Translations under genes and position numbers: made by a program
Source: Myxococcales bacterium
GTDB taxonomy: Bacteria > Myxococcota_A > Polyangia > GCA-2747355
Reading direction: 5' to 3'
NCBI GenBank assembly: GCA_020431405.1
Contig: JAGQIK010000677.1
Span: 620-64,619 of the forward strand
Length of the DNA: 64,000 bases
Notes under the pieces: model-generated
Seen by the model: the letters and a program-made list of their open reading frames with translations, nothing else
Told to the model about the DNA's origin: nothing
The model's database searches: none
Shown: positions 13,353 through 36,444 of the stretch, in pieces
Numbering within the stretch: position 1 is the stretch's first letter
Layout: each line of letters opens with the position of its first letter

Positions 13353-13480
13353 GCGCGAGTCCTAGCACGGGGCCTCGCCGGGCAAAAAACGAAAAAAAGT
13401 CGGCGCGATTTGACTTCGAGCCCCGAGCGGACACATTTGCTTGGCAGCCGCGGCGGTGAACGGTAAGACCCCCATCTCCC

Positions 13481-15290: not shown

Positions 15291-15304
<14 letters not shown>
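13481..15304 (+). CDS. dnaG: DNA primase
   Basis: Zinc-ribbon [31 protein letters not shown] region [26 protein letters not shown], and a DnaB-interaction C-terminus. Confidence 0.9.
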
Positions 15305-17672
<2,368 letters not shown>

Positions 17673-18251: not shown

Positions 18252-19391
18252 ATGCGAGCTAAGAGCGTTGGATTTCTCGTCGCCGCCCTGCTGCTGATCG
18301 CGGGCGCGCCGCCCGCCGCCGCGGTGCCGACGCAGATCGCCTACTCGGGTCGTCTCGAGCGCAACGGCACGGCTGTGACGGGCACGGTCTCGGTGACATT
18401 CGACCTCTACGACGCCAGCACGGGCGGCACCAAGCTGTGGACCGAGGTGTACGCCTCGATGTCGGTGAGCAACGGGATCTTCTACGCCAACCTCGGCGCC
18501 TCGACGCCGCTCGACAGCACGATCTTCACCGGCGCCGACCGCTGGCTCGAGGTCACCGTCGACGGCACCACGCTCACGCCACGCGTCAAGGTCGTCTCGG
18601 TCGCCTACGCGATTACCGCCAGCAACGTCACGGGCGACATCACGCCGCGCAGCATCTCCATCGGCGGCAACGTCGTGATCGACAGCAACGGCAAGTGGGT
18701 CGGCGATGTCGCGGGCCTTCAGGGACCGGCGGGGCCGACTGGCCCGACAGGGCCCGCGGGCCCAACCGGCCCGATGGGCCCCACCGGCGCGACCGGACCG
18801 ACGGGACCGACGGGGCCCAGCGGCCCGATGGGCGTCGCGGGCGGCGTGGGGCCGATCGGTCCGACGGGCCCGACCGGTGCCACGGGCGCTACTGGCCCGA
18901 CGGGCCCGACGGGCCCCACGGGACCGCAGGGCGTCGTGCAGTCCAACCGCGATCACCCGTTCAGCGCCTCGGTGACGGTGAGCGGCACGACCATCACGCG
19001 CGTGGCCGGCGCCTCGCTGACCGTCGCCGCGGGTGAAGCCGTCGTGCTCAACGGCTCCGTCGAGCTGCGCTCGGCGTCCACGGGCAGCATCAGCACCGAT
19101 ATCGGCCCCTGCACCGACGCATCGGGCACGCTTTCGTTTCCGCAGACGTCGCCGCCCAACCAGACGGACTGGGCCGTGACGTACGTGTCACGTACGTTCT
19201 CCGGGTTCGAGACCGGCATGTTCGTGCCGATCACCTTCATCTTCCGCGCGACGACCTCGGGCACGTTCACCTACGGCATCTGCGTGCGCAACTACAACAC
19301 GCAGGTGCCCGTCAGCGCGCGCCAGCAGCACGTCACGGTGCTGCGCATCAACCCGCAGCCGCCGCCGCCGCCGGTCATCATCCCGCAGTAG
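18252..19391 (+). CDS. secreted collagen-like triple-helix repeat protein with tail-fibre-like N-terminal domain
   Basis: Signal peptide. The N-terminal ~150 aa carries the LW-E-Y-S-V-NG-F-LG...RWLEV motif pattern seen in phage and contractile-injection-system tail-fibre repeats. About 33 consecutive GxT/GPx triplets follow ([37 protein letters not shown]...). The C-terminal ~150-aa globular domain ends in a poly-Pro tail. Confidence 0.65.
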
Positions 19392-20907: not shown

Positions 20908-21264
20908 TCAGCGCATCTTAAAGGCGTGCACGGCGATCGCAGCCCAGCCGACGAGCAGGGCCGTGCCGCCGATCGGGGTGATCGCCCCGAGCCAGCGCAC
21001 GCCGGTCACGGCGAGCAGATACAGCGTCCCCGAGAAGATCAGCACGCCGAGCAGCAGCGCCCAGTGCGCCACGGCCAGCGCGCGCGTCGCCTCGCGCCGC
21101 CGCATCACCGCGACCACCACCAACAGGATGGCGTGCAGCAGGTGATAGCGCGCGGCGGTCTCCCAGATCGCCTTCATCGCCGGCGAGAGCTTCGCCGCCA
21201 GCGCGTGCGCACCGAACGCCCCCGCCGCCACGCCGAGAAAGCCGAGAACCGCGCCCGCCAGCAT
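20908..21264 (-). CDS. DUF423 (YgdD/TMEM256-like) small membrane protein
   Basis: 118 aa with four predicted TM helices, plus GAHALAAK...HLLHAILLV and the C-terminal HAFKMR typical of DUF423. Confidence 0.65.
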   Translation of the reverse strand: MLAGAVLGFLGVAAGAFGAHALAAKLSPAMKAIWETAARYHLLHAILLVVVAVMRRREATRALAVAHWALLLGVLIFSGTLYLLAVTGVRWLGAITPIGGTALLVGWAAIAVHAFKMR

Positions 21265-21268
21265 CGGG

Positions 21269-23713
21269 TTACTCGAGGATCACCCAGCTAGGCAGGTTCT
21301 TGCCGCCGCGCAGCGCCGCGATGCTGCGCTGCAGCAGCTTCACCGCGTAGGGCGCGTTGTGGACGCCGCCGCTGCGGTCTTTGGCGAGCACGAGGTAGTT
21401 GTAGGCGGCCTTGTGCAGCTCGAGGTCGGCGAGCGGGAAGGTGAAGGGCACCTCGAGGCGCTCGATGCCGCCGCTGCCGTCGCAGTCGCCGAGGTCGCGC
21501 CCCTTGGCGTCCACGACGACGATCTTGTTGCGATAGCCGACCTTGTAGCCGACGCCCGCGTCGCGCGCGGCGCCGCAGCCCTTGTAGGCGCGCTTGGCGA
21601 TGGCGGCGCGGATGTCGCCGTCGAGCAGATTCATCAGCGCGGCGATCTCGTCGCGGATGCCGGACTTCTTGCCGTCACCGTCGTAGTCGCCCTTGGCGGG
21701 CAGGTCGAACGAGGTCGCCGTGCTGTGGCAGCCACGACAGGCGCCGATGTTGATCAACTTGTCTTTGCGCATGCGGAACGTGTGGCCGCCGAGCTCGCCG
21801 ACGCCTGGCGAGCCGAGCGGTGGTCCCGGGTGCATGTGGCAGTCGATGCAGCCCTTCTTGGTCTTCTTGGCGCAGGCGATGCCCGCCAGCGCGGGCAGCG
21901 CGACACCCGACACGTCGAGCGAGTAGCCCGCGCGGCCGTAGGTCAGGTCGGCCTGTGGCGCGTGCGGCGCGAGGCGCTCGTCGAGCGTCTGCGTCTTGTC
22001 GGGGTCGTGGCCGGCGTTGTGACAGGTGGCGCACAGCGCGGTGCCGCCGACCTTTGTCAGCTCGAGCCCGCTGGGCAGCGTGAGCGATCCGGCGCGATGC
22101 AGCTGGTGCTCGTGCCCCGCGATCATCGCGTTGTGGCAGCCCTGGCAGGTGATCGGCGCCGGGTTTTCGCAGCAGGTGAGCACCGCCGTTTTGGCCGAGT
22201 GCGGCCGGCTCAGCGCGGCGAAGGCGTAGTAGAAGCCTTGCGCGGTGTGACACTTGGCGCACTCGGGACGCCGATCGGGGCCGTTGATGTCGGTGCCCAC
22301 GGTCTTGGCGTGCTTGCTGAGCCGCCACTGCGCCACGGTCAGCTGTTCGGGCAGCCGGTCGTGGCAGCGCGCGCAGACGCCGACTTGAAAGAGCCCCGGT
22401 TGCTCGGCCACCGGCGGGTCGACACGCGCCGGGCCATGACACGACAGACAGTAGACGTTGCTGACGTTCTTCAGCTCGTCGGGCAGCTTGGCGAAGTTGC
22501 CGTCTTTGAGGCTGCTCGGGAACTTGATGTTGTTGCGCCGCGCGATGTCGTCGTAGCCGCCGTCATCGATGGTCGGGTGATAGCCCATGCTGTGACACTC
22601 GGCGCAGCGCTCCGATGCCGGGCCGCGATCGAGCTTGAGCTCGCCGTCGAGCAGGCGCTGCCAGCTGCGCGCGTGGGTCGTGCCCTTCCAGTTGCCCTCC
22701 ATCGCGGCGTGACACTCGCTGCGCCCGCAGTCGCGGCGCACCACGTTCCAGTCGCCCACCACCAGCGAGAACGTCAGCAGCTTGTTGGTCTCTTGCAGCA
22801 CCACCGTCGACTGCGCGGTGATCGGGCCGTTGGCCACTGGCACCACCGACGGCGTGCGCGTGGTCTGGCCCTCGACGGTGACCTTCCAGCCGTTGGGCTG
22901 GCTGACGAGCTTCCAGCTCCACGGGCCCGTCGGGTCGCCGGCGAAATAGTAGCGCCGCCCCGGGGGCACCGACGTCATGCCGCTCACCGCGTCGGTGGAT
23001 GTCGCGTAGCCATAGGCTTTGGCCACCAGGCCCTTGCTGTTTCGCGCCTGAAGCTCGAAGACGTATTCGCCGGCCTGATCGTGCGAGAAGCTGAGCACCG
23101 TCGGCAGCACAGGCAGCCCGCCGCGCGCCTTTTCGATGTCGGCCATGGTGAACGTCAGCTGGCGCTGGTTCCACGTCTTGACCGACTGCTCGATCTTCGG
23201 CCCTTCGAGCTGGCGCCAGGTGAACTGCGCGTCGTCCCAGTCCTTGCCGCACAGGTTGTTTGGCGAGAGGGTGATCGTCTTGCCGAAGCCGACGGCGCGC
23301 TTGGGGCTGACCACCATGCAGGGCAGCATTTTGATCGACAGCTGGTTGTCGCTTTGGGGCAGCTTGATCTTGGTCGGCGGCTGCGGCCGCTGGCCGTCCT
23401 TGGTGACGTAGAGCGTGTAGTTGCCGGCGGGCACCGCGCGCAGGCGCGCCTGGCCGGCGGCGTTCGTGCGCGCGCGCAGGTTGCCCGGCTTGAGCACCAC
23501 CTCGGCGTTCGCGATGGGGGCGCCGTCGGGGTAGAGCGCGCCGAGCAGCTTCTTGGGCCCGCGCCCGCAGCGCACGCGCGGGTAGGCTTCGCCGCTGACG
23601 TTGACCAGCAGGTCGCGCGTGTCGGGCTCCTCGCAGCCGCCGGCTCCAGCGAGCGCGGCGAGCAGCACGGCGAGCGAGCAGCAGAGCGGGCGTCGTCGCA
23701 TCGCCCCGAGCAT
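21269..23713 (-). CDS. lipoprotein multihaem cytochrome c (8 CxxCH plus one CX4CH) with N-terminal CarboxypepD_reg-like domain
   Basis: Lipobox LAGAGGCEEP. Haem motifs CAECH, CLSCH, CARCH, CAKCH, CQGCH, CATCH, CIDCH and CRGCH, plus CGRSECH. An NAEVVLKPGNLRARTNAAGQARLRAVPAGNYTLYV beta-sandwich module. Confidence 0.85.
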   Translation of the reverse strand: MLGAMRRRPLCCSLAVLLAALAGAGGCEEPDTRDLLVNVSGEAYPRVRCGRGPKKLLGALYPDGAPIANAEVVLKPGNLRARTNAAGQARLRAVPAGNYTLYVTKDGQRPQPPTKIKLPQSDNQLSIKMLPCMVVSPKRAVGFGKTITLSPNNLCGKDWDDAQFTWRQLEGPKIEQSVKTWNQRQLTFTMADIEKARGGLPVLPTVLSFSHDQAGEYVFELQARNSKGLVAKAYGYATSTDAVSGMTSVPPGRRYYFAGDPTGPWSWKLVSQPNGWKVTVEGQTTRTPSVVPVANGPITAQSTVVLQETNKLLTFSLVVGDWNVVRRDCGRSECHAAMEGNWKGTTHARSWQRLLDGELKLDRGPASERCAECHSMGYHPTIDDGGYDDIARRNNIKFPSSLKDGNFAKLPDELKNVSNVYCLSCHGPARVDPPVAEQPGLFQVGVCARCHDRLPEQLTVAQWRLSKHAKTVGTDINGPDRRPECAKCHTAQGFYYAFAALSRPHSAKTAVLTCCENPAPITCQGCHNAMIAGHEHQLHRAGSLTLPSGLELTKVGGTALCATCHNAGHDPDKTQTLDERLAPHAPQADLTYGRAGYSLDVSGVALPALAGIACAKKTKKGCIDCHMHPGPPLGSPGVGELGGHTFRMRKDKLINIGACRGCHSTATSFDLPAKGDYDGDGKKSGIRDEIAALMNLLDGDIRAAIAKRAYKGCGAARDAGVGYKVGYRNKIVVVDAKGRDLGDCDGSGGIERLEVPFTFPLADLELHKAAYNYLVLAKDRSGGVHNAPYAVKLLQRSIAALRGGKNLPSWVILE

Positions 23714-23714
23714 A

Positions 23715-25412
23715 TCAGGGCGCCGCCGGCGCGCCGCCCTTACGTGGATCGCTGGCGCCGGCGACCACGCCCGGGCGCGTCTGCCCGGCCACCTGCACGG
23801 CGGTGAACGGATGTTTGACCGCGCGCAGCACGTGGCCGCGCCGCTTCAGCGCTTGGCGCACGTCGGCGGGCAGATCGTCCTCGACCCACAGCTTGTTGGG
23901 CAGCCACTGGTGATGGATGCGCGAGCGCGCGACGGCCTCGCCGAGCTCGAGACCGAAGTCGATCACGTTGAGCAGCGCCTGCAGCGTGCCGGTGATGATC
24001 GTCGGCCCGCCCGAGGCGCCGACCACCAGCTCGACCTGGTTGCCTTTGGTCACGATGGTCGGCGACATGCTCGAGAGCGGGCGCTTGTTGGGGCGCACCG
24101 TGTTCTTTTCGGACTGCATCAGGCCGAACACGTTGGGTTTGCCAGGCTGCGCCGAGAAGTCATCCATCTCGTTGTTGAGGATGATGCCCGAGCGCTTGGT
24201 GGCGACCAGCGAGCCGAAGCCGGTGTTGATCGTCGACGTCACGGAGACGGCCATCCCGCCCTTGTCGATCACGGCGATGTGGCTGGTGCCGCCGTCGCGC
24301 GGGCTCGCGCGCTTCTTGTCGAGCGACCCGTAGCGGTTGATCGGGAGCGTCTTTTTGCCGACGCGTGCCAGCAGCTTGTCGGCGTAGGCCTGCGACGTCA
24401 GCCGCGCGATGGGCACCTTGACGAAGTCGGTGTCGCCCAGATAGCGCGCGCGATCGGCGAAGGCGTGTTTGAGCACCTCGGTGAGCAGGTGCAGGTAGCG
24501 CGACGAGTTGTGGCCGAGCTTCTCGAGCGCGCGGCGCCGCAGCATGTTGAGCGCCATCACGATCGCCACGCCCCCCGACGACGGCGGCGGCATCGTCCAC
24601 ACGCTGCGTCCGCGATAGCGCACGTGAAGCGGCGCGCGCGTGCGCACCTTGTAGCCCGCCAGGTCTTGCATGGTGAGGATGCCGCCGGCCTTCTTGACGG
24701 CGGCGACGATGTCGCGCGCGATCCAGCCGCGATAGAAAACGCGCGCGCCGCCGCGAGCGATGGCGCGCAGAGCGCGGGCCAGGCGCGGGCGCCGCATGCG
24801 CTGGCCGACCTGCGGCGGTTTGCCGCCCGGCATCAGGATGCGCGCGAGATCGGGGTAGCGCGTGATCTGGCGCTGCTTCCACGCCACGCCCGCGGCGAGG
24901 TGATGCTCGACCTTGAAGCCGCGCGCTGCGTAGCGGATGGCCGGCGCCAGCACGCGGGCGAGCGACAGCTTGCCCCAGCGCTTGACCGCGTAGGCGCAAC
25001 CGGCGACCTCGCCGGGCACGCCGACAGCGAGCCCGCCGTAGCGGCTGGCGTTCTTGGGCAGCCCCGGCTTGAGGTACATCTCGCGCGACGCAGCGCGCGG
25101 CGCCACCTCGCGAAAGTCGAGCACCTGCGCCGGCGCGGCGCCGGCCGGCTTGACGAGCATGAAGCCGCCGCCGCCCACGCCGGAGCCCGCAGGGTTGACC
25201 ACGCTCAACGCGAAGGCCGCGGCGCACGCGGCATCGACCGCGTTGCCGCCGCGCGCGAGCATCTCGGCGCCGGCGGCCGAGGCCAGTCGGTGATCGGCGG
25301 CGACCACGCCGCGGCGCGACGTGAGCGCGCGCTCGCCGGCGGCGAGGGCGGGCCCGCAGAGCACGAGCAGGCAGGCGAGGGCGAAATAGAGACGTGAGAA
25401 AGCAGTACGCAC
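23715..25412 (-). CDS. ggt: gamma-glutamyltranspeptidase
   Basis: Signal peptide. Autoprocessing and nucleophile region DGGTSHIAVIDKGGMAVSVTSTINTGFGS. Overall GGT signature (GGFMLV, GGPTIITGTLQALLNV). Lies 1 bp upstream of the cytochrome gene. Confidence 0.9.
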   Translation of the reverse strand: MRTAFSRLYFALACLLVLCGPALAAGERALTSRRGVVAADHRLASAAGAEMLARGGNAVDAACAAAFALSVVNPAGSGVGGGGFMLVKPAGAAPAQVLDFREVAPRAASREMYLKPGLPKNASRYGGLAVGVPGEVAGCAYAVKRWGKLSLARVLAPAIRYAARGFKVEHHLAAGVAWKQRQITRYPDLARILMPGGKPPQVGQRMRRPRLARALRAIARGGARVFYRGWIARDIVAAVKKAGGILTMQDLAGYKVRTRAPLHVRYRGRSVWTMPPPSSGGVAIVMALNMLRRRALEKLGHNSSRYLHLLTEVLKHAFADRARYLGDTDFVKVPIARLTSQAYADKLLARVGKKTLPINRYGSLDKKRASPRDGGTSHIAVIDKGGMAVSVTSTINTGFGSLVATKRSGIILNNEMDDFSAQPGKPNVFGLMQSEKNTVRPNKRPLSSMSPTIVTKGNQVELVVGASGGPTIITGTLQALLNVIDFGLELGEAVARSRIHHQWLPNKLWVEDDLPADVRQALKRRGHVLRAVKHPFTAVQVAGQTRPGVVAGASDPRKGGAPAAP

Positions 25413-25490: not shown

Positions 25491-27491
25491 CTACCCCTTC
25501 TCGGAGCGCTTTTCGCTCGAGGCTTGGTTGCGGCGGTAGAGCGCGTCACTCAGGCGTCTGATCGCGGTCGCGAGGTAACGCCGGTAGGTGCCCCAGGACA
25601 GCTCGAGCCGCTCGGCCGCGGCACGCTGCGTCCCCGCCGGAAGCAGATAGGTGCGCTCGAGAACGCGGTAGTAGCGCACGTCTTTGGCCGTGGCGAGAAA
25701 CATCCGGCACTGCTCGCGCGCGAGCTCGGCAAGCGCCCGCGCCCGCTCCGAGTCGCTGGCGTCCGGCGAGACACGGTCGAGCACCATCTGCGTCGCCGTC
25801 AGCGGGTTCTGCTCGAGCAGGTCGAGCCGATCGAGGTCACGCAGCGCTCGCTTGACCGCGCGTCCGAAGGGCTGGCGTCCACGGGTCGTGACGCTCGGCG
25901 TGGCGACGACCACCCGCGAGCGCATGCGATCGCGCAGCAGCGTCGCGATGTCGACGCGACGCAGGTCGAGGCCGAAGGTATAGAAGGTCCGTCCGCTTGC
26001 CTCGGCGTGGGTCTTGTCGAAGGTCTGCATGCCGGCTTCGTTCGCGATCTGCTGCCAGCGGCTGTCACTGGCGACGTGCAGCACGGCGGCGAGGTCGGGC
26101 GTGATCAGCTTGGCGTGCGTGTCCGAAAACAGGCAGCTCTGCGCCGCGCACGGCGCTTGATAGCAACCGTCCGTCATCCACATACGCACGCAGTAGACAG
26201 CTTGATGAGTCTCGACGTAGGCGAGCACGTGCTCGACGATGGGCCGCAGCAGCGGGTCGCGCGCCAGCTCGGCTGGCTCGTAGCGTTCGAGCCACAGCCC
26301 GAGCAAAAAGCCTTCGACCTCGCCGCCATCTTCGACGACGAGAACATCGCCGCCGCGGTCCCACCAGTGCTCGAGCCAGCGCCTCCCGAGCTCGCCTTCG
26401 TGCTTGGCCGCCATGCGACCGAGCGTCTCGCGGTCGGCGGCGAGCGCGTGCCGCAGCCGGCACGTCTCCGTATACGTGTCGTGCTCGGCGAAGGCGCTCC
26501 AGCCGGGCACGCGCTGCGCGACGAACAACCATTCGGCTGGCGCCCGGCCGAGAAAGAAGAGCATGAGCTGCTCGACGAGCGCCCAGTAGCGCAGCGGACT
26601 ACGCCACTGCAAGTCGGCTGCGATGGCGTCGCGCATCAGCGCGTGGGGTTGAAGGCCGCCCGGCACCGCCTCTATGAACGACTGCCCGTGCAGCCAGTCG
26701 AAGACCTCCCGTGCTCGCGGCCGGCCGAGCACCTCGGCGAGCACGGCGTCGTTGGTCGTGCGCACCAGAGCGCAGATCTCGAGCCCTTCGCGGTGGGCAT
26801 CTCCCGGCACGTCGCGCAACAGCTCGCCGATGAGCGGCTGTAGCAGATCCGGGATCTCGGCCAGGCTCGCGACGTCCTCGGCGACGATTTGCTCGAAGCG
26901 CTCGGCGCACAGCGCGAGGCACAACGGATGGCCGCGCGTCAACGCGAGCAGGCGCGCGTGCGTCCCCGCGTCGGCCTGGATGCCGCGGCGCTCGAGAAAC
27001 GCGGCCACCTCGCGCTCCGAAAAGTGGTCGAGTCGCACCGCAACGAAGACCTCGCCCCACGCAGGGTGGGCGACCCAGCGCGCGCCGAGGTGCCGGCGAC
27101 CGGCCGTGACCAGCGTCGTCGCGCCGCCGAGCGAGGGGACGAGCTCCTCGCGCAGCCAGTCGTCGATGGGCTCGAGCAGGTCGACGTTGTCGATGATCGC
27201 CAGCGCGGGCGGGTCGTCACCGCCAACGAGGCCTAGCGCTTGACGCAGCGCACGGGGGTCGGGCGCGATGCGGGTCGCGTCGACCCAACGTCGCGTCGCG
27301 CTGTCGTGCCGGCGGCATAGCGCGTGAAGCAGCTCGGTCTTGCCGACGCCCGCGTTGCCTTCGACGTAGACAAACGGCGGACGCGCGGGCGCTCGCAGCC
27401 AGCACGAGAGCTGATCGAGCTCGCGCTCGCGGCCGACGAAGCGCGCCGCGCGAAACCGCGTCACGCGCGCGTGGTAGCCGTCGGCCGCCAC
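25491..27491 (-). CDS. STAND/LAL-type P-loop ATPase transcriptional regulator with a central GNAT-like region and C-terminal sigma70-r4/LuxR-like HTH
   Basis: FVGRERELDQL then Walker A VYVEGNAGVGKTELL then hhhhDNVDLLEP, as in large ATP-binding regulators. C-terminal LELSWGTYRRYLATAIRRL helix-turn-helix. Lies 5 bp downstream of the XRE gene, so likely operonic. Confidence 0.55.
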   Translation of the reverse strand: MAADGYHARVTRFRAARFVGRERELDQLSCWLRAPARPPFVYVEGNAGVGKTELLHALCRRHDSATRRWVDATRIAPDPRALRQALGLVGGDDPPALAIIDNVDLLEPIDDWLREELVPSLGGATTLVTAGRRHLGARWVAHPAWGEVFVAVRLDHFSEREVAAFLERRGIQADAGTHARLLALTRGHPLCLALCAERFEQIVAEDVASLAEIPDLLQPLIGELLRDVPGDAHREGLEICALVRTTNDAVLAEVLGRPRAREVFDWLHGQSFIEAVPGGLQPHALMRDAIAADLQWRSPLRYWALVEQLMLFFLGRAPAEWLFVAQRVPGWSAFAEHDTYTETCRLRHALAADRETLGRMAAKHEGELGRRWLEHWWDRGGDVLVVEDGGEVEGFLLGLWLERYEPAELARDPLLRPIVEHVLAYVETHQAVYCVRMWMTDGCYQAPCAAQSCLFSDTHAKLITPDLAAVLHVASDSRWQQIANEAGMQTFDKTHAEASGRTFYTFGLDLRRVDIATLLRDRMRSRVVVATPSVTTRGRQPFGRAVKRALRDLDRLDLLEQNPLTATQMVLDRVSPDASDSERARALAELAREQCRMFLATAKDVRYYRVLERTYLLPAGTQRAAAERLELSWGTYRRYLATAIRRLSDALYRRNQASSEKRSEKG

Positions 27492-27495
27492 GCCG

Positions 27496-27924
27496 CTACT
27501 CGTTTACGGCAGCGGAGGCCTGCCTCGGCTCGCCCCCGCGCTCGACGAACATCGCCCGCGCAACGCGCAGCAGCGTCGAGACGTCGCCGGTGCTGCGACA
27601 GCGCATGTAGTCGACGAGCTGCGCGAGCGGGCCGCGCGCCCCGCCCTCGCTGATGCTCTCGAGCAGCGTGTCGAGCCCGAGCCCGAGCCCCTGGCTGAGC
27701 TTGTGCAGCGTCACCAGCGAGGGCACCATCTTCGCGGATTCGATGCGTCGGATCGAGTCCGGCGACAGCTGCGCCGCGTCAGCGAGGTCTTCCTGGCTCC
27801 AGCAGCGCGTCGCGCGCAGGTCGCGCAATCGATGAGCCAGCGCGCGAACCAACCTTCTCTGCTCGTCCACTCCTTCGACGCCCATCGCGCTCTCCTTTGC
27901 GATCGTCCCTGCAGCAACCTGCAT
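27496..27924 (-). CDS. XRE-family HTH transcriptional regulator (paralog 2)
   Basis: HTH CWSQEDLADAAQLSPDSIRRIESAKMVPSLVTLHKLSQGLG. A C-terminal segment (LAQLVDYM...LLRVARAMF) is shared with the neighbouring paralog. Probable start at MGVEG (about 27885). Confidence 0.6.
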   Translation of the reverse strand: MQVAAGTIAKESAMGVEGVDEQRRLVRALAHRLRDLRATRCWSQEDLADAAQLSPDSIRRIESAKMVPSLVTLHKLSQGLGLGLDTLLESISEGGARGPLAQLVDYMRCRSTGDVSTLLRVARAMFVERGGEPRQASAAVNE

Positions 27925-28080
27925 TGCTGGTGCCAGCTGGCAAATCGGACAATACGCAGAAATAACGAACTAGCACTAATAGCTGTCTGGTCGGACGGGC
28001 ACTTTTTGTGAGCAGTTCTTGCCGGCGTCGGCACGCATTGCCCGATCGATAGCAACGCTGCCGCCAGCGCGGTCCACGGG

Positions 28081-28410
28081 CTAGCGATGGCCAAAGATCG
28101 CTTCGGCGACGCGCAGGAGCGCGGCGAGCTCGTCGGCGCGCAGAGTCGCCGCGAACTCGACCAGCTGGGCCAGCTGGTGCGACTGCAGGTTGGTCACGTC
28201 GGCGCCCGCCAACAGGGCCAGATCAGTCGCATATCCCGTCGCCAGTTTGTGCAGGGATATCAACGACGGTGCCATACGGCCACTCTCCATCCGCCGAATG
28301 GAGTCCACCGATAGCCCCGTTCGCTCCGCCGCTTCCTCCTGAGTCCAGCCGCGTGCGGCGCGCTGGCGCCTCAGACGGGCCGCGAAGCGCTTGAGCAGCT
28401 CGTCGCTCAT
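28081..28410 (-). CDS. XRE-family HTH transcriptional regulator (paralog 1)
   Basis: HTH GWTQEEAAERTGLSVDSIRRMESGRMAPSLISLHKLATGYA. C-terminal LAQLVEFAATLRADELAALLRVAEAIF. Confidence 0.65.
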   Translation of the reverse strand: MSDELLKRFAARLRRQRAARGWTQEEAAERTGLSVDSIRRMESGRMAPSLISLHKLATGYATDLALLAGADVTNLQSHQLAQLVEFAATLRADELAALLRVAEAIFGHR

Positions 28411-28482
28411 GGTCGCGCCGGGCGAGGCAACGCTGCCAGCGAGACGGCAATGCGCCGCTGCGCCGGTCAGCGCCGCCTGCGC

Positions 28483-31400
28483 CTACTGCACCGTGACGCT
28501 GCAGCGGTTGGCGCCACTTGCCGTCACGCCACCGTACGAAGGCACTGCAAATGCCGACCCTGCGGCCACGCCGGTGAGCAGGCCTGGGCTCGCTGGCGTG
28601 ACGAAGTCGGCCACGCCCGTGCCGCTGGAGGTCCAGCTCGTTTGCGTGTCGGTGGTGATCTCGTTTTCGGAGCTGTCGCTGAGCGTGACGTAGGCGCGCA
28701 GCTGCGCCGTCCCGCCGGGAACGATGCTTACCTGCGCCGGCTCGCAGCGTACAGAGACCGGGGTCGCCGCGGTGACGCTGACGGCCAACGGTCCGCTGGC
28801 CGCGCCGCCGCGCGAGGCGCTGAGGTTGGTCGAGCCCACGGCCGCCGCGGTGAAGGTGCCGGCGCCGGCGCCGGAGGCGACGACGGTACCCGTCGAGGTG
28901 TTCGACGAGGCCCAGGTGACGTTGGCGGTGCCCCAGTACTTGCTGCCGCCGAGCAAAGTGACGTGTGCTGCGTAGGGCACCTGCAGCCCATTGGCGACCG
29001 ACGCCGACGGCGTGCCGCCGGTGCTGCTGACGATGGCGATGGTCGAGATCGCGCCCGGCTGGATCGAGATCGTGAAGGTGTCGGACTGGCCGGAGAGCGC
29101 GGCCATCACCGTCTGGGTCGACTGCGCGCTCGGCGTTCCGCTGCTGACAACGCCGGCGGCGCTGATGGCCGTGCCGCTGACCACGGGCGTCCCCAGCGTC
29201 CAAGTCACGCTGTCGGTGAGGTCGTCGTCGGGGCCGGCCGAGTAGTGGCCGGTCGCTCTGAGCGGCAGCGTCCAGCCACCCGCGGGCATCTGCGCGTCGG
29301 CGCCGCCGTTGGTGCCGCCGCTGATGAAGCTCGCGGTGGCGCTGATCGTGAGGCCGGTGAGGACCTTGCCACTGACCGTGACCGCCGAGGCGTTGGACGT
29401 CACGCCGAGCAGAGAGGCCGTCACGACCGCTGTACCCGCGGTGGTGGTCGAGGTCACCGCGCCCGACCCCGGGTTGGGCGACGTCGGCGCCACGACGCCG
29501 GTGTTGGTCGAAGCGTAGGTCGCGACGCGGCTGAGGTCGTAGGTGCCCGCGCCGCTTCCGCCGACATAGGTGCCGGTGGCCGCGACGGTGCGCTGCGTGC
29601 CGCGCGCCATCGAGACAGTGGCGGGCAAGGCGATACTGCTCAGCGTGGCGCTGCCGACGGTGATGCGGCGCGTGGCCGTCTTGTTTCCGCCGCAACCGGC
29701 GACGGTGACTGTCAGATCGGCGAACTGTGCTGCCGTGGCGCCCGTGGCGATGCTGCCAGCGCCGTCGGCGGCATAGGTGCCGCCTGCCGGGTCGACGATG
29801 ATGTTGTTGCTGTCGCTCTTGGAGAACGCCGGAGTGCAGGGCAGGCTGCTGCCGTTTGAGGTCGTGCACGCGTAGCCGAGCTCGAAGAATGCGCCGCGCG
29901 GCAGCGTGGTGTTGCCCGATGGGCTGGTGATAGCGATCGCCGTGATGCACGCGGCGCTGACAGTCGCGCTCACCGTGTTCGAGATCACCGTGCCGACCTG
30001 AGCGAAGAAGTTGGTCGAGCCCGCGGCGAGCCCGGTCAGCGTGTACGCCTTGTTGGCGCTGCCCGCCGAGGGGCCGGTGATCGAGGCCACCGAGCCGTTG
30101 GCGATCTGCCACGTCACGACCGGCGGATCGAGGCTGTAGTCGTTGCTGCCGTCGGTCCATACCGCCGTGACTGTCAGCGTCTGCGCGCCGCCAGCGCCGA
30201 TGGGAAGGCTGACGCTGGGGCTGGGGCTGACGGATAGCGACTTGAGCGTCACTGCGACGACATCGAGGGCGACGTTGGTCGACGTGACGCCGCGGTAGGT
30301 GGCGCTGATGTTGGTCGAGCCGGCGGCGACGGCTGTCGCCCGGCCGCTGCTGTTGATGCTCGCCACGCTGGTCGCCGAGCTTTGCCAGCTCGATACGCGC
30401 GCCGTGACGTCGAAGGTGCGCTCGGCGGCGCTGAAGCTCGCGCAGGCACCCGAGGCAGGATAGACGGCTTGCGCTGTGAAGTCGCGGTTCTGGCCCACCG
30501 GCAGGTTGCCGGTGCCGCCAGTCGACGCGTTGACCGCCGGCGCGGCGCAGGCGGCAACGGTAACGATGAATGTGTCGGTCTTGCCGTTGGACGTGGTGAC
30601 GCTGATGATCGTCGTGCCCGCGCCGACGCCGCTGAGCAGTCCAGCGGCCGAGACCGTCGCAGTGCTCGTCTGCTGCGACGACCACGTCGAGCTCGACGTC
30701 ACGTCGACGTTGGTCGTCCCGTCGGTCATCGTCGCCAGCGCTCGCAGCTGCACCTGCTCGCCCTGCGGCAGGTTCGCGACCTTGGGCGTGATCGTCACCG
30801 TGTCGATGGCCGCCGTGCCGACGGTGGCGCTGGCCTGGCCGCTGATCGTCGTCTTGGTGGTGTCTCCGCCCATGCAGACGTTGGCGCCGCTGAGCGTGAA
30901 GGTCACGGTGGCGGCGCCGGCTGCGTTGGCCGTGAAGGTGGCGGCGCCGCCCGAGTTGGATAGCACGCTGCCAGCCGACGACGACCAGGTCCCGAGGGAC
31001 GTGACATCGGTCTGGTTGCTGCCGGTGTCCGTCGCCGTGGCGACGAAGGTCTGCATCTGTCCAACCGCGAGCGTCGCCGTCGCCGGAGTGACGGCCACTG
31101 AGCTGTAGCAGACCGTCGCCGTCGAGACGTTGATGCCGAGGGTGTTGGTGATGCCGTCCTTGAGGAAGCTGAGCGTGATCGGCGTGCCGCCGGTGGCGGT
31201 CGAGAACGTCTGGATCGCCGTGCCGGCGCTGGTGGTCGTCACGGCCACGATCGAGGCGTTGGCGCTCGATGAGGTCACCAGCTTGGAGATATCGTACGAC
31301 GTCGAGTTGCTGTAGACGCCGGTGACCGTCAGCGGGCTGGTGACGTTCTGACCGAGCGTCGCGCCGTCGGTGATGCTGAATGTCATGCTGCTGAGCGTCG

Positions 31401-34400
31401 CCGCGTTGACGTTGACAGCCATGGGCGACGAGGTGACGCCCTGGAAGGTCGCCGTCAGCGTCGGGTCGGTGCCGGCCGAGGCTGCGTTGGTCGCGGCGAT
31501 GTTGCTGCCCGAGGCGATGCTGAGCTTGGACGGATCGCTGCTGGCGAAGCTGATTCCGGTCGGATTGACGGCGGTCGTGCTGTCCGAGTAGGTCACCGTC
31601 GCCTGCAGCGCGACCTCGATGCCCACCGGGTAGCCGACGGTGCTTGACGGCAGCAGGGCCGTGATGGCCACGCTCGACACCGTCTTGCCCGTGATCGCGA
31701 GCGAGGCCTGCGCGGTCTGGCTGCCGTAGGTCGCGGTGACCGTGGTCGAACCGCTCGTGGTGCCGCTGTGCGAGAAGCGTTCGGCCGGCAGCGTCGCGGC
31801 CGGAGCGGTGGCCGCAGCGTGCGCGAGGCCAGCGATGGATGGCGTGTTGGTCCATGTCGCGAACGGCGAGACGTTGAAGGTGCCGGCGCTGCCGAAGGTC
31901 GCGCGTGCGACGAAGTCCTGCGCCGCGCCGCGGTTGACCGACGCGGTGGCCGGCTCGACGACGAGCGCCGTCATCGCTGCAGAGCTCGCGCTGACGGCGA
32001 CGCTGTCGCTCTTGGTCGTGCCGCCGCAGGTGCCCGAGGAGACGGAGAAAGTGACGCTGCCGCAGTTGGCCGTGCCCACCGTGAGCATCCAGCTCGCCGG
32101 ATCGACGGCATAGCCGGCGCAGCTGCCGACGCTCCAAGAGCCGAGCGTGCCGACGGCGATCTGAACCGGGGTGGTCGGCGCGTCGCTGTAGTAGGCCTTG
32201 GCCGTGAGCGGTACGACGACCTGGCGCGGGTACGTCGGGTCCTGCTGATCGATGACGACCTTCTGCAGACACGCGCCGGTGACGGTGAGTGTCGTCGAGC
32301 CCGTGCGCGTGCCGAGCGCGGCCGAAAGCGTGGTGTTGCCGGCGGCGAGGCCGGTCGCCGTGCCCTTGCTGCCCGCCGCGTTGCTGACCGTGGCCACTGT
32401 GGCGTTGCTGCTGCTCCAGGTGACGTGCGCGGTGATGTTGCGCGTGGTCCCGGCGCAGCCCGTGCCGCTGTAGCTGCCGGTGGCGATGAACGGCTGCGTG
32501 CTGCCCTGGTTGATCGAGGGCGAGGCCGGCGAGAGGCTGATGCTGTCCAGCGTGAGCGTGGCGCCGCGGACCGTGGCGTTCGGCGCTGCCGTCGCCGGCG
32601 ACGTCTGGCCCCCCTGGGTCGCGGTGACGACGGCGCTGCCCGCGCCGACGATCGTCACGACGCCGCCGGTGGCCGTCGCGACGGTGGCACTGGTGGTGCC
32701 CCACGACGCCGTCGACGTCACGTCGCCAGTGGTGCTGTCAGAGAACGTCGCCGTTGCCGTGCAGTTGACCTTGTAGCCGATACCGCTCGGCAGACAGTCG
32801 AGCGGCGCCGCGCAGGTCACGGCTATGGAGCTTATCTGCGTGTCTTTGACCGTGACTTTGGCGAACGAGACGATCTGACCCAGCCTCGCCATCAGGTAAC
32901 CGGCGCCGCCGGAGAGGCTCGCTGTCGAGGTCGCGCCGGTGACGTTGCCAGCGACGACGGTGAAGTGGCCGATAGGGGTTTTGGCCGTGGGGTTGTCGAC
33001 GGCGATCCAAGTCACTGACTGGGTGATGTCGAAGGTGCTGCCGTCACTGTAGTTGCCCGTCGCGCTGAACTGCCGCGACTGGCCGACGTTGACGGTATCT
33101 GACCCTGGCGTGATCGTGATGCTCGACAGCGACACGCCGGTCTTGACGGTCACGTCGACAGCGGTGGAGGTGATCGTCTGGCCTTGCGAGTTGACGGCCT
33201 CGGCGGTGATCTGCGTCGTGCCGCCGGCGACGGCCGTCGCGAGCCCGACGGGCGTGACGTTGCTTACGGTGGCGATGTTGGTGCTCGACGAGGTCCACAC
33301 CGCTTGGTCGGTGATGTCCGCCGTGGTGCCGTCGCTGTAGGTTCCGGTGGCGGTGAGCTGGTAGCTGGCGCCGACAGGCAGCTGCGCGGTTGGCGGGTTG
33401 TCGATGGCGATGCCGGTGAGGATCGCGCTGGTGACCGTGACCTGCACGCTGTTGGTGCTCGTCACGCCCATGTAGGTCGCCGACACGGTGGTCGTGCCCA
33501 CCGCCGTGCCGCGGGCGACGTTCTGCGTGAAGCCGACGACGCCGCTCGGCGTGCCGCTCCACGTGGCGCTGGTGCTGACGTCCTGCGTGGTGTTGTCGGT
33601 GTAGGTCGCCGTCGCGGTGAACGTGACGTCGCTGCCGAGCGGCAAGCTCTGCGGAGTCGACGGCTCGATCGTCAGCGAGACGATCGACGCGGTGGTTACG
33701 GTGAGCGACGTGGTGCCGCTCTGGCCCTGGAAGGTCGCGCTGATAGTGGCCGAGCCCGCGGCCACGCCGGTGGCGAGGCCAGGGTTGCTGCCGCCGGTGG
33801 TCTCGACGGTGGCGGCGTTGGTGTCCGACGACTGCCACGACGCCGCCGACGTGATGTCCTGCGTCGACTGGTCGCTCATCGTCGCGATGGCCTTGAACTG
33901 CTGCGTCGCGCCCTTGGCGATGGAGGCGGTCGCCGGCGTGACCTGAATGCTGACGACTACCGCGGCAGTGACGACGACGGTGAGCTTGCCAGTCTTGCCG
34001 CCGAAGGCCGCCGAGATGTCGGCCGAGCCGGCGGCCACGCCGCTGACCTCGCCCTTGGTGGTGGTGCTATCGACGGTGGCGATGGTCGCGTCCGATGTCG
34101 TCCACGTCGCCTGGCTGGTGACATCCTGCTTGCTGCCATCGCTGTAGATCGCCGTGGCGGTGAGCTGCACCGTTCCGCCGATGTTCACCGAGGGGCTCGC
34201 CGCGGTGACCTCGATCTTGTCGAGCGTGGCGTCGGTGACGTCGAGCGTGGTGCTGCCGGACTTGCCCGCGAGGCTCGCTTCGATGGTCGCTGTGCCCTTG
34301 GCCAGCGCGGTGGCGAGGCCGAGGGCGTCGATGGTGGCGATGGACGCGCTCGACGAGCTCCAGGTCACCTGACTGGTGACATCCTGCTTCGACTGGTCGG

Positions 34401-35097
34401 TGAGGATCGCCTCTGCCTTGAACTGCTGCGTCGAGCCAGCGGCGACGCTAGGGTTGACCGGCGTGACCTCGATCTTGTCGATCTCGGCCGCCACCACGAG
34501 CGCCGCGGTGCCCTTGACGCCGGAGAGATCCGCTGTGATGTCGGCCGTGCCCTCGGCCTTGGCCGTTGCTAGGCCTTTGCTGTCGACCGTGGCGACGCTC
34601 TCGTTGCTGGAGCTCCAGGTCACCTTGTCGCTGACCTTCTCGGTGGTGCCGTCGTCGTAGTTGGCGGTGGCTTCGAACTGCTGCGTCGTGCCCGAGGCGG
34701 CCTTGGTCGTGGGTGGCGTAACCTGCAGCGCGATGACCTTGCGCTCCTTGACGGTCAGGCTGGCCGTGCCTTTGGTGCTGCCGACCTCGGCGGTGATGGT
34801 CGCGTCACCCGCCTTGACGCCCGTCGCCGTGCCGTTGGAGACGGTGGCCACGGACTCGGAGCTCGATGACCACTTGGCTTCGCTGGTGACGTCTTTGGAG
34901 CTGCCATCGCTCTGCTCGCACGTCGCGACGAAGCGCTGCGTCGCGCCGACGCTGATGGTTGCTGACGATGGCTGCACTCTGATCGTGCTGCACGAGCTGC
35001 CGCCTTCGTCGCCGCCGCAGCCCGCCTGTGCGGCCACGAGGGCTAGGATCGCTCCTGCAAACGCCACCTTGATCGAGATTCGATGCACCGAAGCCAT
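28483..35097 (-). CDS. giant cell-surface lipoprotein made of ~25 tandem bacterial Ig-like (Big_2) domains, 2205 aa
   Basis: ATG at 35097..35095 preceded by AAGGAGGG. Signal plus lipobox MASVHRISIKVAFAGAILALVAAQAGCGGDE. Repeated ~85-aa units of the Big_2 type (IxVxPxxxSIAxGxTQQFxAxAxYSDGSxxDVTSxAxWSSSxxSVATVxxxGLATAxAAGTAxISA). The ORF-table entry 28483..36669 is this frame spuriously extended by 524 codons across the antisense of the next two genes. Confidence 0.85.
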   Translation of the reverse strand: MASVHRISIKVAFAGAILALVAAQAGCGGDEGGSSCSTIRVQPSSATISVGATQRFVATCEQSDGSSKDVTSEAKWSSSSESVATVSNGTATGVKAGDATITAEVGSTKGTASLTVKERKVIALQVTPPTTKAASGTTQQFEATANYDDGTTEKVSDKVTWSSSNESVATVDSKGLATAKAEGTADITADLSGVKGTAALVVAAEIDKIEVTPVNPSVAAGSTQQFKAEAILTDQSKQDVTSQVTWSSSSASIATIDALGLATALAKGTATIEASLAGKSGSTTLDVTDATLDKIEVTAASPSVNIGGTVQLTATAIYSDGSKQDVTSQATWTTSDATIATVDSTTTKGEVSGVAAGSADISAAFGGKTGKLTVVVTAAVVVSIQVTPATASIAKGATQQFKAIATMSDQSTQDITSAASWQSSDTNAATVETTGGSNPGLATGVAAGSATISATFQGQSGTTSLTVTTASIVSLTIEPSTPQSLPLGSDVTFTATATYTDNTTQDVSTSATWSGTPSGVVGFTQNVARGTAVGTTTVSATYMGVTSTNSVQVTVTSAILTGIAIDNPPTAQLPVGASYQLTATGTYSDGTTADITDQAVWTSSSTNIATVSNVTPVGLATAVAGGTTQITAEAVNSQGQTITSTAVDVTVKTGVSLSSITITPGSDTVNVGQSRQFSATGNYSDGSTFDITQSVTWIAVDNPTAKTPIGHFTVVAGNVTGATSTASLSGGAGYLMARLGQIVSFAKVTVKDTQISSIAVTCAAPLDCLPSGIGYKVNCTATATFSDSTTGDVTSTASWGTTSATVATATGGVVTIVGAGSAVVTATQGGQTSPATAAPNATVRGATLTLDSISLSPASPSINQGSTQPFIATGSYSGTGCAGTTRNITAHVTWSSSNATVATVSNAAGSKGTATGLAAGNTTLSAALGTRTGSTTLTVTGACLQKVVIDQQDPTYPRQVVVPLTAKAYYSDAPTTPVQIAVGTLGSWSVGSCAGYAVDPASWMLTVGTANCGSVTFSVSSGTCGGTTKSDSVAVSASSAAMTALVVEPATASVNRGAAQDFVARATFGSAGTFNVSPFATWTNTPSIAGLAHAAATAPAATLPAERFSHSGTTSGSTTVTATYGSQTAQASLAITGKTVSSVAITALLPSSTVGYPVGIEVALQATVTYSDSTTAVNPTGISFASSDPSKLSIASGSNIAATNAASAGTDPTLTATFQGVTSSPMAVNVNAATLSSMTFSITDGATLGQNVTSPLTVTGVYSNSTSYDISKLVTSSSANASIVAVTTTSAGTAIQTFSTATGGTPITLSFLKDGITNTLGINVSTATVCYSSVAVTPATATLAVGQMQTFVATATDTGSNQTDVTSLGTWSSSAGSVLSNSGGAATFTANAAGAATVTFTLSGANVCMGGDTTKTTISGQASATVGTAAIDTVTITPKVANLPQGEQVQLRALATMTDGTTNVDVTSSSTWSSQQTSTATVSAAGLLSGVGAGTTIISVTTSNGKTDTFIVTVAACAAPAVNASTGGTGNLPVGQNRDFTAQAVYPASGACASFSAAERTFDVTARVSSWQSSATSVASINSSGRATAVAAGSTNISATYRGVTSTNVALDVVAVTLKSLSVSPSPSVSLPIGAGGAQTLTVTAVWTDGSNDYSLDPPVVTWQIANGSVASITGPSAGSANKAYTLTGLAAGSTNFFAQVGTVISNTVSATVSAACITAIAITSPSGNTTLPRGAFFELGYACTTSNGSSLPCTPAFSKSDSNNIIVDPAGGTYAADGAGSIATGATAAQFADLTVTVAGCGGNKTATRRITVGSATLSSIALPATVSMARGTQRTVAATGTYVGGSGAGTYDLSRVATYASTNTGVVAPTSPNPGSGAVTSTTTAGTAVVTASLLGVTSNASAVTVSGKVLTGLTISATASFISGGTNGGADAQMPAGGWTLPLRATGHYSAGPDDDLTDSVTWTLGTPVVSGTAISAAGVVSSGTPSAQSTQTVMAALSGQSDTFTISIQPGAISTIAIVSSTGGTPSASVANGLQVPYAAHVTLLGGSKYWGTANVTWASSNTSTGTVVASGAGAGTFTAAAVGSTNLSASRGGAASGPLAVSVTAATPVSVRCEPAQVSIVPGGTAQLRAYVTLSDSSENEITTDTQTSWTSSGTGVADFVTPASPGLLTGVAAGSAFAVPSYGGVTASGANRCSVTVQ

Positions 35098-35205
35098 GAG
35101 CCCTCCTTCGCGCGTGTGGCCCGCGTACACGTGCACGCGTGGCTCTCGAAGCGCGGCTGTCGACTGCCTTTGACTACCGGCTGGCGCGAGGCGGCAACAT
35201 GGACG

Positions 35206-35943
35206 ATGTTCGAGATCGGTGCCGACGATGTGCCTGGACACTTTCTGAGCACTCGCAGTAGCGTGCCGCCAATGCTTGCCCGAGTGCTCGAGCCCGAGGT
35301 GATGGATTCGCCGCAAGAGGCGCTCGAATACGACACGATGGATCATTCGGCGGTCAACGCTGACTTCGCCGAGACGCTCTGCGCGCTGATCGGCGGCACC
35401 GCGCCGGCCACGCCGCTGCTCGATGTCGGTGCGGGCACGGCGCTGATCCCGATCGAGATCTGTCGCCGCCTCGCCCAGGCGCGTGTCGTCGCGCTCGACT
35501 TGTCGCGCGCGATGGTCGAGCTCGGCAGGCGGCGTGTCGCCGAGGCCGGGCTCGCGCGCCGCATCGAGCTCCACCTGGTCGACGCCAAGGCCATGCCCTA
35601 CGCCGACGGCGCGTTCGACGTGGTGATCTCGAACAGCATCGTGCACCACATCCCAGAGCCGCGCCGTGTGATCCGGGAGATGGCGCGCGTGCTGCGCCCC
35701 GGCGGCGCCCTGCTGGTGCGCGATCTGCTGCGTCCCGACGACGAGGCGACGCTCGACGCGCTCGTCGCGCGCTACGCGGGCGGCGCTTCGGCGCACCAGC
35801 GCGCGCTCTTCGAGGCGTCGCTGTGGGCCGCGTTGACGGTCGACGAAGTGCGCGCGCTGGTCGCCGAGGTCGGGCACGCGCCCGACGGCGTGCAGCAGAG
35901 CAGCGACCGCCACTGGACATGGACAATCCGTCCCGCGTGCTAG
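35206..35943 (+). CDS. class I SAM-dependent methyltransferase
   Basis: Motif I LLDVGAGTALIPIE, motif II VVALDLS, post-I acidic residue, VISNSIVHH, LRPGGALLVRD. The start is uncertain (MFEIG at 35206 or MLARVLEPEVMDSP at 35275). The ORF start at 35083 overlaps the divergent giant gene. Confidence 0.7.
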   Translation: MFEIGADDVPGHFLSTRSSVPPMLARVLEPEVMDSPQEALEYDTMDHSAVNADFAETLCALIGGTAPATPLLDVGAGTALIPIEICRRLAQARVVALDLSRAMVELGRRRVAEAGLARRIELHLVDAKAMPYADGAFDVVISNSIVHHIPEPRRVIREMARVLRPGGALLVRDLLRPDDEATLDALVARYAGGASAHQRALFEASLWAALTVDEVRALVAEVGHAPDGVQQSSDRHWTWTIRPAC

Positions 35944-35955
35944 ATCGTGAGAGCT

Positions 35956-36444
35956 ATGCCGACGCGCAAGCGCTACTGGCTCATGAAGAGCGAGCCCAAC
36001 ACCTACAGCTACGCCGATCTGGTGCGCGCTGGCCGCACCAGCTGGGAGGGCGTGCGCAACTATCAAGCGCGCAACCTCCTTCGCGACGAGGTCAAGCTCG
36101 GCGACGAGGTGCTGTTCTATCACTCGAGCTGTGATCCCCCCGGCGCGGTCGGGATCTGCCGCGTGGTGCGCGAGGGCTACCCTGACCACACCGCCTTCGA
36201 CGAGGCGTCGCCTTACTACGACGAGAAGAGCGACCCCGAAAAGCCGCGCTGGTACATGGTCGACGTCGAGCCGGTGCGCGCCCTGACCCGTACGGTCACG
36301 CTCGAGGAGCTCAAGGCACAGGCCAAGCGGCTCGGCGACTTCGCGCTGATCCGCAAGGGCAACCGCCTCTCGGTGATCCCCGTCTCGGCTGCGCAGTGGA
36401 AGGTGATCCTGGCGTTGGAACAGGCGCGTTCCGATGACACCTGA
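35956..36444 (+). CDS. EVE (PUA-like) domain protein
   Basis: RYWLMKSEPNTYSYADL...WEGVRNYQARNLLRDEVKLGDEVLFYHSSC...GICRVVREGYPDHTAF...PRWYMVDVEPVRALTRTVTLEELK is the canonical EVE signature. Confidence 0.75.
   Translation: MPTRKRYWLMKSEPNTYSYADLVRAGRTSWEGVRNYQARNLLRDEVKLGDEVLFYHSSCDPPGAVGICRVVREGYPDHTAFDEASPYYDEKSDPEKPRWYMVDVEPVRALTRTVTLEELKAQAKRLGDFALIRKGNRLSVIPVSAAQWKVILALEQARSDDT

Follow-up and report, generated by a model that had tools for sequence, protein, structure and literature searches.

Why should two small helix-turn-helix (HTH) regulators of the XRE type and a much larger nucleotide-binding protein be lined up immediately behind the gene for a giant surface lipoprotein? This question is raised by positions 25491 to 28482 of a 64,000-nucleotide stretch of DNA (the window; 70% GC) from a Myxococcales bacterium. 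An earlier note on this DNA had taken the three genes for a regulatory module that might switch the lipoprotein, seen there as an adhesin, or act as an independent sensing unit, and had pointed to the growing association of STAND proteins with defence. Our comparisons lead elsewhere. The third gene encodes a 666-aa divergent representative of a large unnamed family in which a STAND core is joined to a GNAT-fold domain and a C-terminal HTH, and the trio itself is, on sequence comparison and as far as public data allow, a lineage-specific juxtaposition rather than a conserved unit. Gene structure, the paralogy of the two XRE proteins, domain folds and motifs, the clustering of a short DNA motif and the absence of conserved linkage were established directly, and the layout is as follows:

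28483-35099, minus strand: giant Big_2-repeat lipoprotein gene, 2204 aa, with its ATG at 35099-35097 behind AAGGAGG
28411-28482, minus strand: 72-bp gap separating XRE1 from the giant gene
28081-28410, minus strand: XRE1, 109 aa, Cro/C1-type HTH plus two C-terminal helices (MCA9672745.1)
27886-28080, minus strand: XRE1-XRE2 intergenic region, 195 bp, 59% GC
27496-27885, minus strand: XRE2, 129 aa, paralogue of XRE1 (MCA9672744.1)
25491-27491, minus strand: STAND gene (the 666-aa open reading frame), 4 bp past the XRE2 stop codon (MCA9672743.1)
26502-27491, minus strand: STAND gene residues 1-330, predicted nucleotide-binding oligomerisation domain (AAA_16, motifs, AlphaFold2, Foldseek)
25962-26462, minus strand: STAND gene residues ~344-510, GNAT-fold domain, presumed sensor (domain model, Foldseek)
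25491-25877, minus strand: STAND gene residues 539-666, C-terminal domain of helices with an HTH at its end, presumed DNA-binding output (AlphaFold2 helices, conserved block)

The four genes all lie on the minus strand with 72 bp between the first two, as had been read before, and the sizes of 109 and 666 aa stand; the giant protein is 2204 rather than 2205 aa from its ATG, the second XRE protein, put at about 130 aa, has 129 from its corrected start, and XRE2 is separated from the STAND gene by 4 bp instead of 5. NCBI names both XRE products 'helix-turn-helix transcriptional regulator' and the 666-aa protein 'hypothetical protein KC503_44425'; our XRE1 sequence is identical to its NCBI entry. 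The lipoprotein identity of the giant protein also holds, since its translation begins MASVHRISIK and continues through a signal peptide to a cysteine, and Pfam Big_2 matches it in 11 stretches (E=1e-93). We treat its gene as context and its membership of any regulatory unit as putative.

What kind of protein does the third gene encode? The two motifs on which the STAND assignment was first based are both present, as FVGRERELDQL and GNAGVGKTELL. The hidden Markov models (HMMs) of Pfam support an NTPase, AAA_16 scoring 37.5 bits against a cut-off of 32.6 over residues 17-72 only, whereas the dedicated STAND models stay below their thresholds (nSTAND1 20.3 bits with a cut-off of 27.1, NACHT 16.5 bits, NB-ARC 11.5 bits). 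When the protein was scanned together with 34 relatives (35 members, E<=0.1), NACHT was found in 26 of them (best E=1.1e-6), and NB-ARC likewise in 26 (best E=5.2e-5). An AlphaFold2 model built on 12 sequences reached a mean predicted local distance difference test score (pLDDT) of 82, and its top Foldseek match in the PDB is the core of MalT (8bob_C, E=7e-9, target template modelling (TM) score 0.60); the STAND-TPR protein PH0952 (6mfv), Apaf-1 (3sfz), Avs3 (8dgc) and CED-4 (2a5y) also appear within ranks 1-6. In the alignment of the 35 members, G48, G50 and K51 of Walker A, D101 of Walker B (LAIID) and R132 are invariant or nearly so. A GxP or 'GLPL' motif (G187-H188-P189-L190, within GHPLCL at residues 187-192 here and GHPLAL in the family) and a histidine at the winged-helix 'MHD' position (H283, in PHA here and PHD in the family) are invariant or at least 90% conserved, these two assignments being made by their likeness to the GLPL and MHD motifs of NB-ARC proteins. 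Judged by sequence and model, the 666-aa protein is thus a genuine STAND ATPase, with Walker A and B, the GxP motif, the winged-helix histidine and a MalT-core fold all in place.

The resemblance to MalT, the activator of the Escherichia coli maltose regulon, extends from the nucleotide-binding oligomerisation core, with its Walker A and B motifs, GxP helical domain and winged helix carrying a conserved histidine, to the order of core, sensor and C-terminal DNA-binding domain. The differences are just as plain. MalT has 901 aa and carries a SUPR/TPR-like solenoid of ~370 residues at the position where our protein has a GNAT fold of ~170 residues; the DNA-binding domain here is not of the LuxR/GerE type; and past the P-loop no similarity in sequence can be detected. 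LAL regulators also belong to the class of STAND transcription factors. They share with AfsR and GutR, and with the 666-aa protein, an AAA_16-type N-terminus (FVGRE...GxxGxGKT) and a DNA-binding output, all presumably being ligand-gated, ATP-dependent activators. The 'LAL-type' label once given to the 666-aa protein must nonetheless be dropped: it is much shorter at 666 aa and has neither GerE HTH, TPR nor SARP domain. GerE (PF00196) has no match in the protein at E<=1 and does not figure in the 25 commonest families either of the 35-member scan or of 20 C-terminal domains searched at E<=1, occurring only in one remote relative (P0009); TPR models match neither the protein nor any member of the 35-member scan.

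What lies in the middle of the protein? Modelled separately, residues 336-535 gave a pLDDT of 82 and a predicted TM score of 0.80, and all 50 top Foldseek matches in the PDB are GNAT acetyltransferases, including Naa60 and puromycin N-acetyltransferase (best E=3.9e-6, TM 0.5-0.6). The GNAT-like region suspected from the sequence therefore holds as a fold, but not as an HMM assignment: the Acetyltransf model matches nothing in the 666-aa protein and does not reach the 25 commonest families of the 35-member scan, and a profile search of the domain against PDB sequences returned nothing meaningful. The acetyl-CoA-binding motif A (Q/RxxGxG/A after strand 4) is missing from all 35 aligned members, which carry (F)R(F)WMxRDxYQxxSPxQ in its place, RMWMTDGCYQAPCAAQ in our protein. 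Because motif A is absent and no Acetyltransf match exists, we infer from sequence and model that this is a degenerate, non-catalytic and sensor-like GNAT domain. It would thus share its fold (residues ~344-510, E~4e-6) with true GNAT acetyltransferases while differing from them in motif A, in the absence of a Pfam match and in being embedded in a regulator.

The C-terminal residues 539-666 are helical in the AlphaFold2 model and end in an HTH (TQRAAAERLELSWGTYRRYLATAIRRL) with a conserved block, TQExAAExLxLPFSTYRRHL in the family and SWGTYRRYL here. An HTH was correctly recognised in this region; its likeness to sigma70 region 4 proved weak, NCBIfam sigma70-ECF reaching only 14.8 bits against a cut-off of 42.9 (residues 575-651, E=0.016) and the Pfam sigma models giving no match in the 666-aa protein. 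The relatives show scattered sub-threshold matches to HTH_8, Sigma70_r4, HTH_30 and others, those of the sigma type in 2-3 of 20 relatives and those of the Fis-type HTH_8 equally often, and the C-terminal domain found nothing meaningful when its profile was searched against PDB sequences. It is a generic HTH. In remote relatives the STAND core and the GNAT-like region are retained and the C-terminal HTH has given way to another DNA-binding domain, either Trans_reg_C of the OmpR type (P0008, P0010, P0011 and P0162-P0164) or GerE of the LuxR type (P0009). From these replacements there is good sequence evidence that the C-terminal position holds a DNA-binding output module, and that the output domain is shuffled among remote relatives.

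How widespread is this architecture? Word-indexed homologue searches gave only 11-16 matches, all at 32% identity or less in the search with 11. An exhaustive HMMER scan over 1.84 billion cluster representatives (50% identity clusters) recovered 2,936 of them with E<=1e-3, of which 544 have E<=1e-30. Among the top 150 almost every protein has the full length of 620-730 aa; the closest is 37% identical and one lower-ranked fragment 39%. A scan of genome contigs with the 666-aa protein alone found no relative. A degenerate DNA pattern for P-F-[ST]-T-[YF]-R-R-H-L proved highly specific and yielded 120 genome loci, nearly all of them true family members. The family spans at least six phyla, its hosts including Actinomycetota (Streptomyces, Nonomuraea, Actinoplanes, Pseudonocardia and others), Chloroflexota, Cyanobacteria (Nostoc, Tolypothrix), Rhodothermales, Thermaceae and Armatimonadota. 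Past the P-loop it has no Pfam or NCBIfam model, its plasmid-borne members are annotated 'ATP-binding protein', 'AAA family ATPase' or 'hypothetical protein', the first two being the names used in RefSeq, and literature searches on the architecture and on the motifs GHPLAL and STYRRHL found no description.

The genes next to family members hint at what they regulate. Directly downstream, 83 loci carry a FAD_binding_3 flavoprotein in 14 cases (~440-490 aa, without a specific NCBIfam assignment), a SnoaL-like protein in 8 (~140-165 aa), an Asp/Glu racemase in 5, a cupin in 4 and a ferritin-like protein in 2; the flavoprotein, SnoaL-like, racemase and cupin partners are on the same strand. Such recurrent enzyme partners (at L003, L029, L030, L041, L060, L065, L066, L067, L094, L103, L106, L111 and others) are found on the downstream side only. 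They fit pathway-specific regulators paired with small enzyme genes and suggest sub-clades of regulator-enzyme pairs within the family. In some genomes two family members, or a family member and another AAA_16 gene, are adjacent as tandem paralogues (L092 596-4851; L128; 4 of 59 upstream neighbours). The divergent upstream neighbour of one member, P0001, carries eCIS_core (PF13699; L001 1526-2440, minus strand), a domain typical of contractile injection system cargo proteins.

Do XRE proteins accompany the family? From the STAND side, phmmer found no XRE1/2-like protein in the 8-kb blocks around some 110 family loci from other phyla. HTH_3 and HTH_31 are not among the 25 most frequent Pfam families of 59 upstream neighbours, where a paralogous AAA_16 gene is commonest (4/59), and no XRE neighbour is present at the four closest readable relatives (P0013, P0014, P0015 and P0026, 33-35% identity) or at P0001, P0003 and P0004. 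From the XRE side, a profile search recovered only fragments of this organism and matches confined to the HTH, and a family member is absent from all 80 metagenome loci (454 kb) that encode the XRE proteins closest to these two. With no XRE-STAND pairing from either side at the loci compared, the three genes cannot be upheld as a conserved three-regulator module.

The XRE proteins themselves, the products of a tandem duplication, are ordinary regulators. Over 105 residues they share 43% identity (E=1e-21) in an alignment that takes in the C-terminal helices (LAQLVEF and LLRVAEAIF in XRE1, LAQLVDY and LLRVARAMF in XRE2), and both exceed the Pfam cut-offs for HTH_31 and HTH_3 (52.6 and 48.6 bits for XRE1, 44.2 and 39.6 bits for XRE2), so that the paralogy claimed from their shared HTH and C-terminal helix is fully borne out. 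The maximal XRE2 reading frame reaches 27924 (142 aa); we place the real start at the ATG at 27885-27883 because it is preceded by an AAGGAG Shine-Dalgarno sequence and two gene calls, from NCBI and an ENA contig, agree on it. That contig covers XRE2 and the start of the STAND gene with the same 4-bp spacing; it is from the same strain (1 single-nucleotide polymorphism in 705 bp) and therefore carries no evolutionary information. The best PDB sequence matches of the XRE proteins are DdrO, C.BclI and C.AhdI, covering the HTH only; an RstR model aligns over the full length at 47 bits, under its cut-off of 80, and PADLOC gives weak matches to its capH and control-protein models. With DdrO, the restriction-modification C proteins C.BclI and C.AhdI, RstR of the CTX phage and CapH they share a small size (109-129 aa here), an N-terminal HTH_3/HTH_31 and short C-terminal helices, but unlike these they have no partner protease, restriction system or prophage nearby. 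XRE1 had no match in the phages collection, and across the profile search and the 80 metagenome loci the C-terminal LAQLV...LLRVA motif was seen only in this organism's own sequences. The GC content at third codon positions is 0.82 in XRE1, lower than the 0.87-0.93 of its neighbours; together with the spacer between XRE1 and XRE2, which has 59% GC where the genome has 70%, this may point to a more recent or foreign origin of the XRE genes.

Where might these regulators bind? The DNA on either side of XRE1 contains the following elements:

28426-28433 and 28446-28453: GCRTTGCY copies in the 72-bp gap
28051-28058, 28035-28042 and 27921-27928: GCRTTGCY copies in the 195-bp region
27931-27942: perfect 12-bp palindrome TGCCAGCTGGCA, before XRE2
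28426-28466 and 28022-28062: arms of a 41-nt imperfect inverted repeat, 71% complementary, which brackets XRE1 exactly

The 267 nt of intergenic DNA flanking XRE1 hold 5 of the window's 24 GCRTTGCY sites, where 0.1 would be expected (Poisson ~1e-7 for this post hoc count). The 11-mer GGCAGCGTTGC has exactly two copies in the window, one on each side of XRE1, and makes up the inverted repeat together with the GGCAATGC/GCATTGCC copies carried by both flanking regions; a further copy, GCATTGCT, lies directly upstream of the XRE2 Shine-Dalgarno sequence. We rejected an invertible cassette as an explanation for the 41-nt repeat: its arms reach only 71% complementarity, a recombinase gene is missing from the vicinity, and repeated operator half-sites are the better reading of the shared cores. 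GCRTTGCY repeats would then be putative XRE operator half-sites, and the 195-bp region is likely to be the promoter and operator of XRE2 and the STAND gene. The motif is missing both from the stretch before the giant gene (35.1-35.3 kb) and from the gap that follows the STAND gene. Nor was a convincing terminator found. Because the motif flanks XRE1 and is absent upstream of the giant gene, its placement suggests autoregulation rather than control of the adhesin.

Taken together, we think it probable, with some room for doubt, that the locus is a lineage-specific regulator cluster, made up of an autoregulating XRE pair and a MalT-like switch that is co-transcribed with XRE2, reads its signal through a GNAT sensor and acts in cis. 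For its DNA sites, ligand sensing, oligomerisation and target genes we reason from the motifs and models above and from known systems. XRE1 and XRE2 would be small Cro/C1-type repressor-like proteins with an N-terminal HTH and a C-terminal helical pair most likely used for dimerisation, and their most likely binding sites would be the GCRTTGCY repeats and the TGCCAGCTGGCA palindrome in the intergenic DNA on both sides of XRE1. Such binding could impose autoregulation on XRE1 and control the transcript of XRE2 and the STAND gene, which are probably co-transcribed and, lying 4 bp apart, translationally coupled. By analogy with MalT, GutR and AfsR, a signal at the degenerate GNAT domain may release the autoinhibition of the STAND protein, whereupon ADP would be swapped for ATP in the nucleotide-binding core and the protein would oligomerise. 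The C-terminal HTHs could then engage DNA and switch on a target promoter, which would most likely be one in cis, such as that of the enzyme and cytochrome genes downstream.

Several points weigh against this scheme. The GNAT domain could be catalytic, or could bind a protein instead of a small molecule. The enrichment of GCRTTGCY is post hoc and inflated by the 59% GC of one of the regions, and no consensus sigma-70 promoter was found in the region. The source is a metagenome-assembled genome of an uncultured organism, and the libraries searched contained no relative above 37% identity apart from the fragment already mentioned, so that the comparison covers lineages beyond its own genus and family within the Myxococcota. 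Finally, the tight coupling of XRE2 to the STAND gene could be a real functional partnership confined to this lineage.

It is possible that the STAND protein is a dedicated activator of the genes that follow it, with the XRE pair only gating its expression. Such a role, which is compatible with the regulator cluster just outlined, strikes us as unlikely in this strict form, although it is better placed than the other alternatives. The genes concerned are co-directional and hence possible cis targets:

23715-25412, minus strand: gamma-glutamyltransferase (GGT) gene, 78 bp past the STAND stop codon (NCBIfam g_glut_trans, 508 bits; MCA9672742.1)
21269-23713, minus strand: multihaem cytochrome with a CarboxypepD_reg domain (Pfam)
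20908-21264, minus strand: DUF423 gene (Pfam)

The GGT gene, that of the 814-aa multihaem cytochrome (an MtrC/MtrF-like domain plus CarboxypepD_reg) and the DUF423 gene are tightly packed over 20908-25412, the first two only 1 bp apart; this uncommon set of genes may make up an operon behind the STAND gene. The short co-directional gap and this packing speak for the idea, as does the family at large: of 83 downstream neighbours, 42 share the strand of the family member and lie no more than 150 bp away, and it is on that side that the enzyme partners recur. However, upstream neighbours are same-strand and equally close almost as often (26/59), GGT, cytochromes and DUF423 do not recur as partners at the 83 loci, and no shared motif was found in the 78-bp gap before GGT.

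A more speculative proposal, to which we give a small chance, is that the protein stands for a new class of metabolite-gated STAND activators, in which a dead GNAT domain senses an acyl-CoA or an amine in place of a repeat solenoid, and that XRE2 has been recruited as its partner, either as an anti-activator in the manner of MalY, MalK and Aes for MalT or as a co-binding factor, to give a two-layer switch.

That the three regulators form a switch for expression of the giant Big_2 lipoprotein we consider doubtful, and slightly less probable still. The genes are indeed adjacent and co-directional, the 72-bp gap has no terminator-like hairpin and it contains two of the GCRTTGCY copies. The start and promoter of the giant gene, however, are 6.6 kb upstream and without a copy, the sites at its 3' end are better suited to autoregulation of XRE1, and an arrangement with a giant gene was not found with any STAND or XRE relative examined. 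Least credible of all, to the point of being very improbable, is an anti-phage or conflict system in which an Avs- or NLR-like STAND sensor is held under XRE control, as in CapH/CapP or DdrO/IrrE: the STAND fold does also match Avs3, and the XRE proteins show the weak capH and control-protein matches and a DdrO likeness in the HTH region, but no PADLOC model is significant for the STAND protein (best E=9e-4 over 65 residues), its output is an HTH in place of a nuclease, protease or TIR effector domain, an adjacent ImmA/IrrE-type (COG2856) protease is lacking (the neighbours being the Big_2 lipoprotein, STAND, GGT, cytochrome and DUF423 genes), XRE1 is unmatched in the phages collection, none of the neighbouring genes that were examined was recognised as belonging to a mobile element, and the genes next to family members encode metabolic enzymes. 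The defence link thus found no significant support in PADLOC. A mobile element or prophage was rejected on the same lack of phage matches and mobile-element genes, with dnaG and rpoD ~10 kb away.

The wider neighbourhood is varied. The genes for primase (dnaG, 13460-15304) and the 793-aa sigma-70 factor (rpoD, 15291-17672) lie near that of a 379-aa protein with collagen triple-helix repeats (18252-19391, plus strand); given rpoD and dnaG, the region is part of the core chromosome and not an island. Divergent from the giant gene are those of a class I SAM methyltransferase, whose annotated start overlaps the start of the giant gene, and an EVE-domain protein (194 bits; together 35083-36444, plus strand), followed by one for a protein with a C-terminal pyroglutamyl-peptidase (Peptidase_C15) domain (36528-38129). 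A second, unrelated STAND protein of 1922 aa (42235-48003, plus strand) combines a Ser/Thr kinase, nSTAND1 (325 bits) and WD40 beta-propellers, and an 842-aa reading frame without a Pfam match follows its gene.

For the locus itself, then, the comparative evidence gives no support to a single three-regulator system or to control of the adhesin, and the interest attaches to the uncharacterised STAND-GNAT-HTH family and not to the trio. To our knowledge, few STAND transcription factors have been characterised, and those that have been use repeat-type sensors. A 2026 phylogeny of STAND proteins cites MalT, GutR and AfsR as transcription regulators (PMC13581612). Defining the family would give a name to many 'ATP-binding protein' genes that lie beside flavoprotein, SnoaL, racemase and cupin genes in Streptomyces, Nonomuraea, Nostoc and Chloroflexota, and a family that combines exchangeable outputs with a GNAT fold in the place of the sensor would add to the known modes by which NLR-like switches read small signals.

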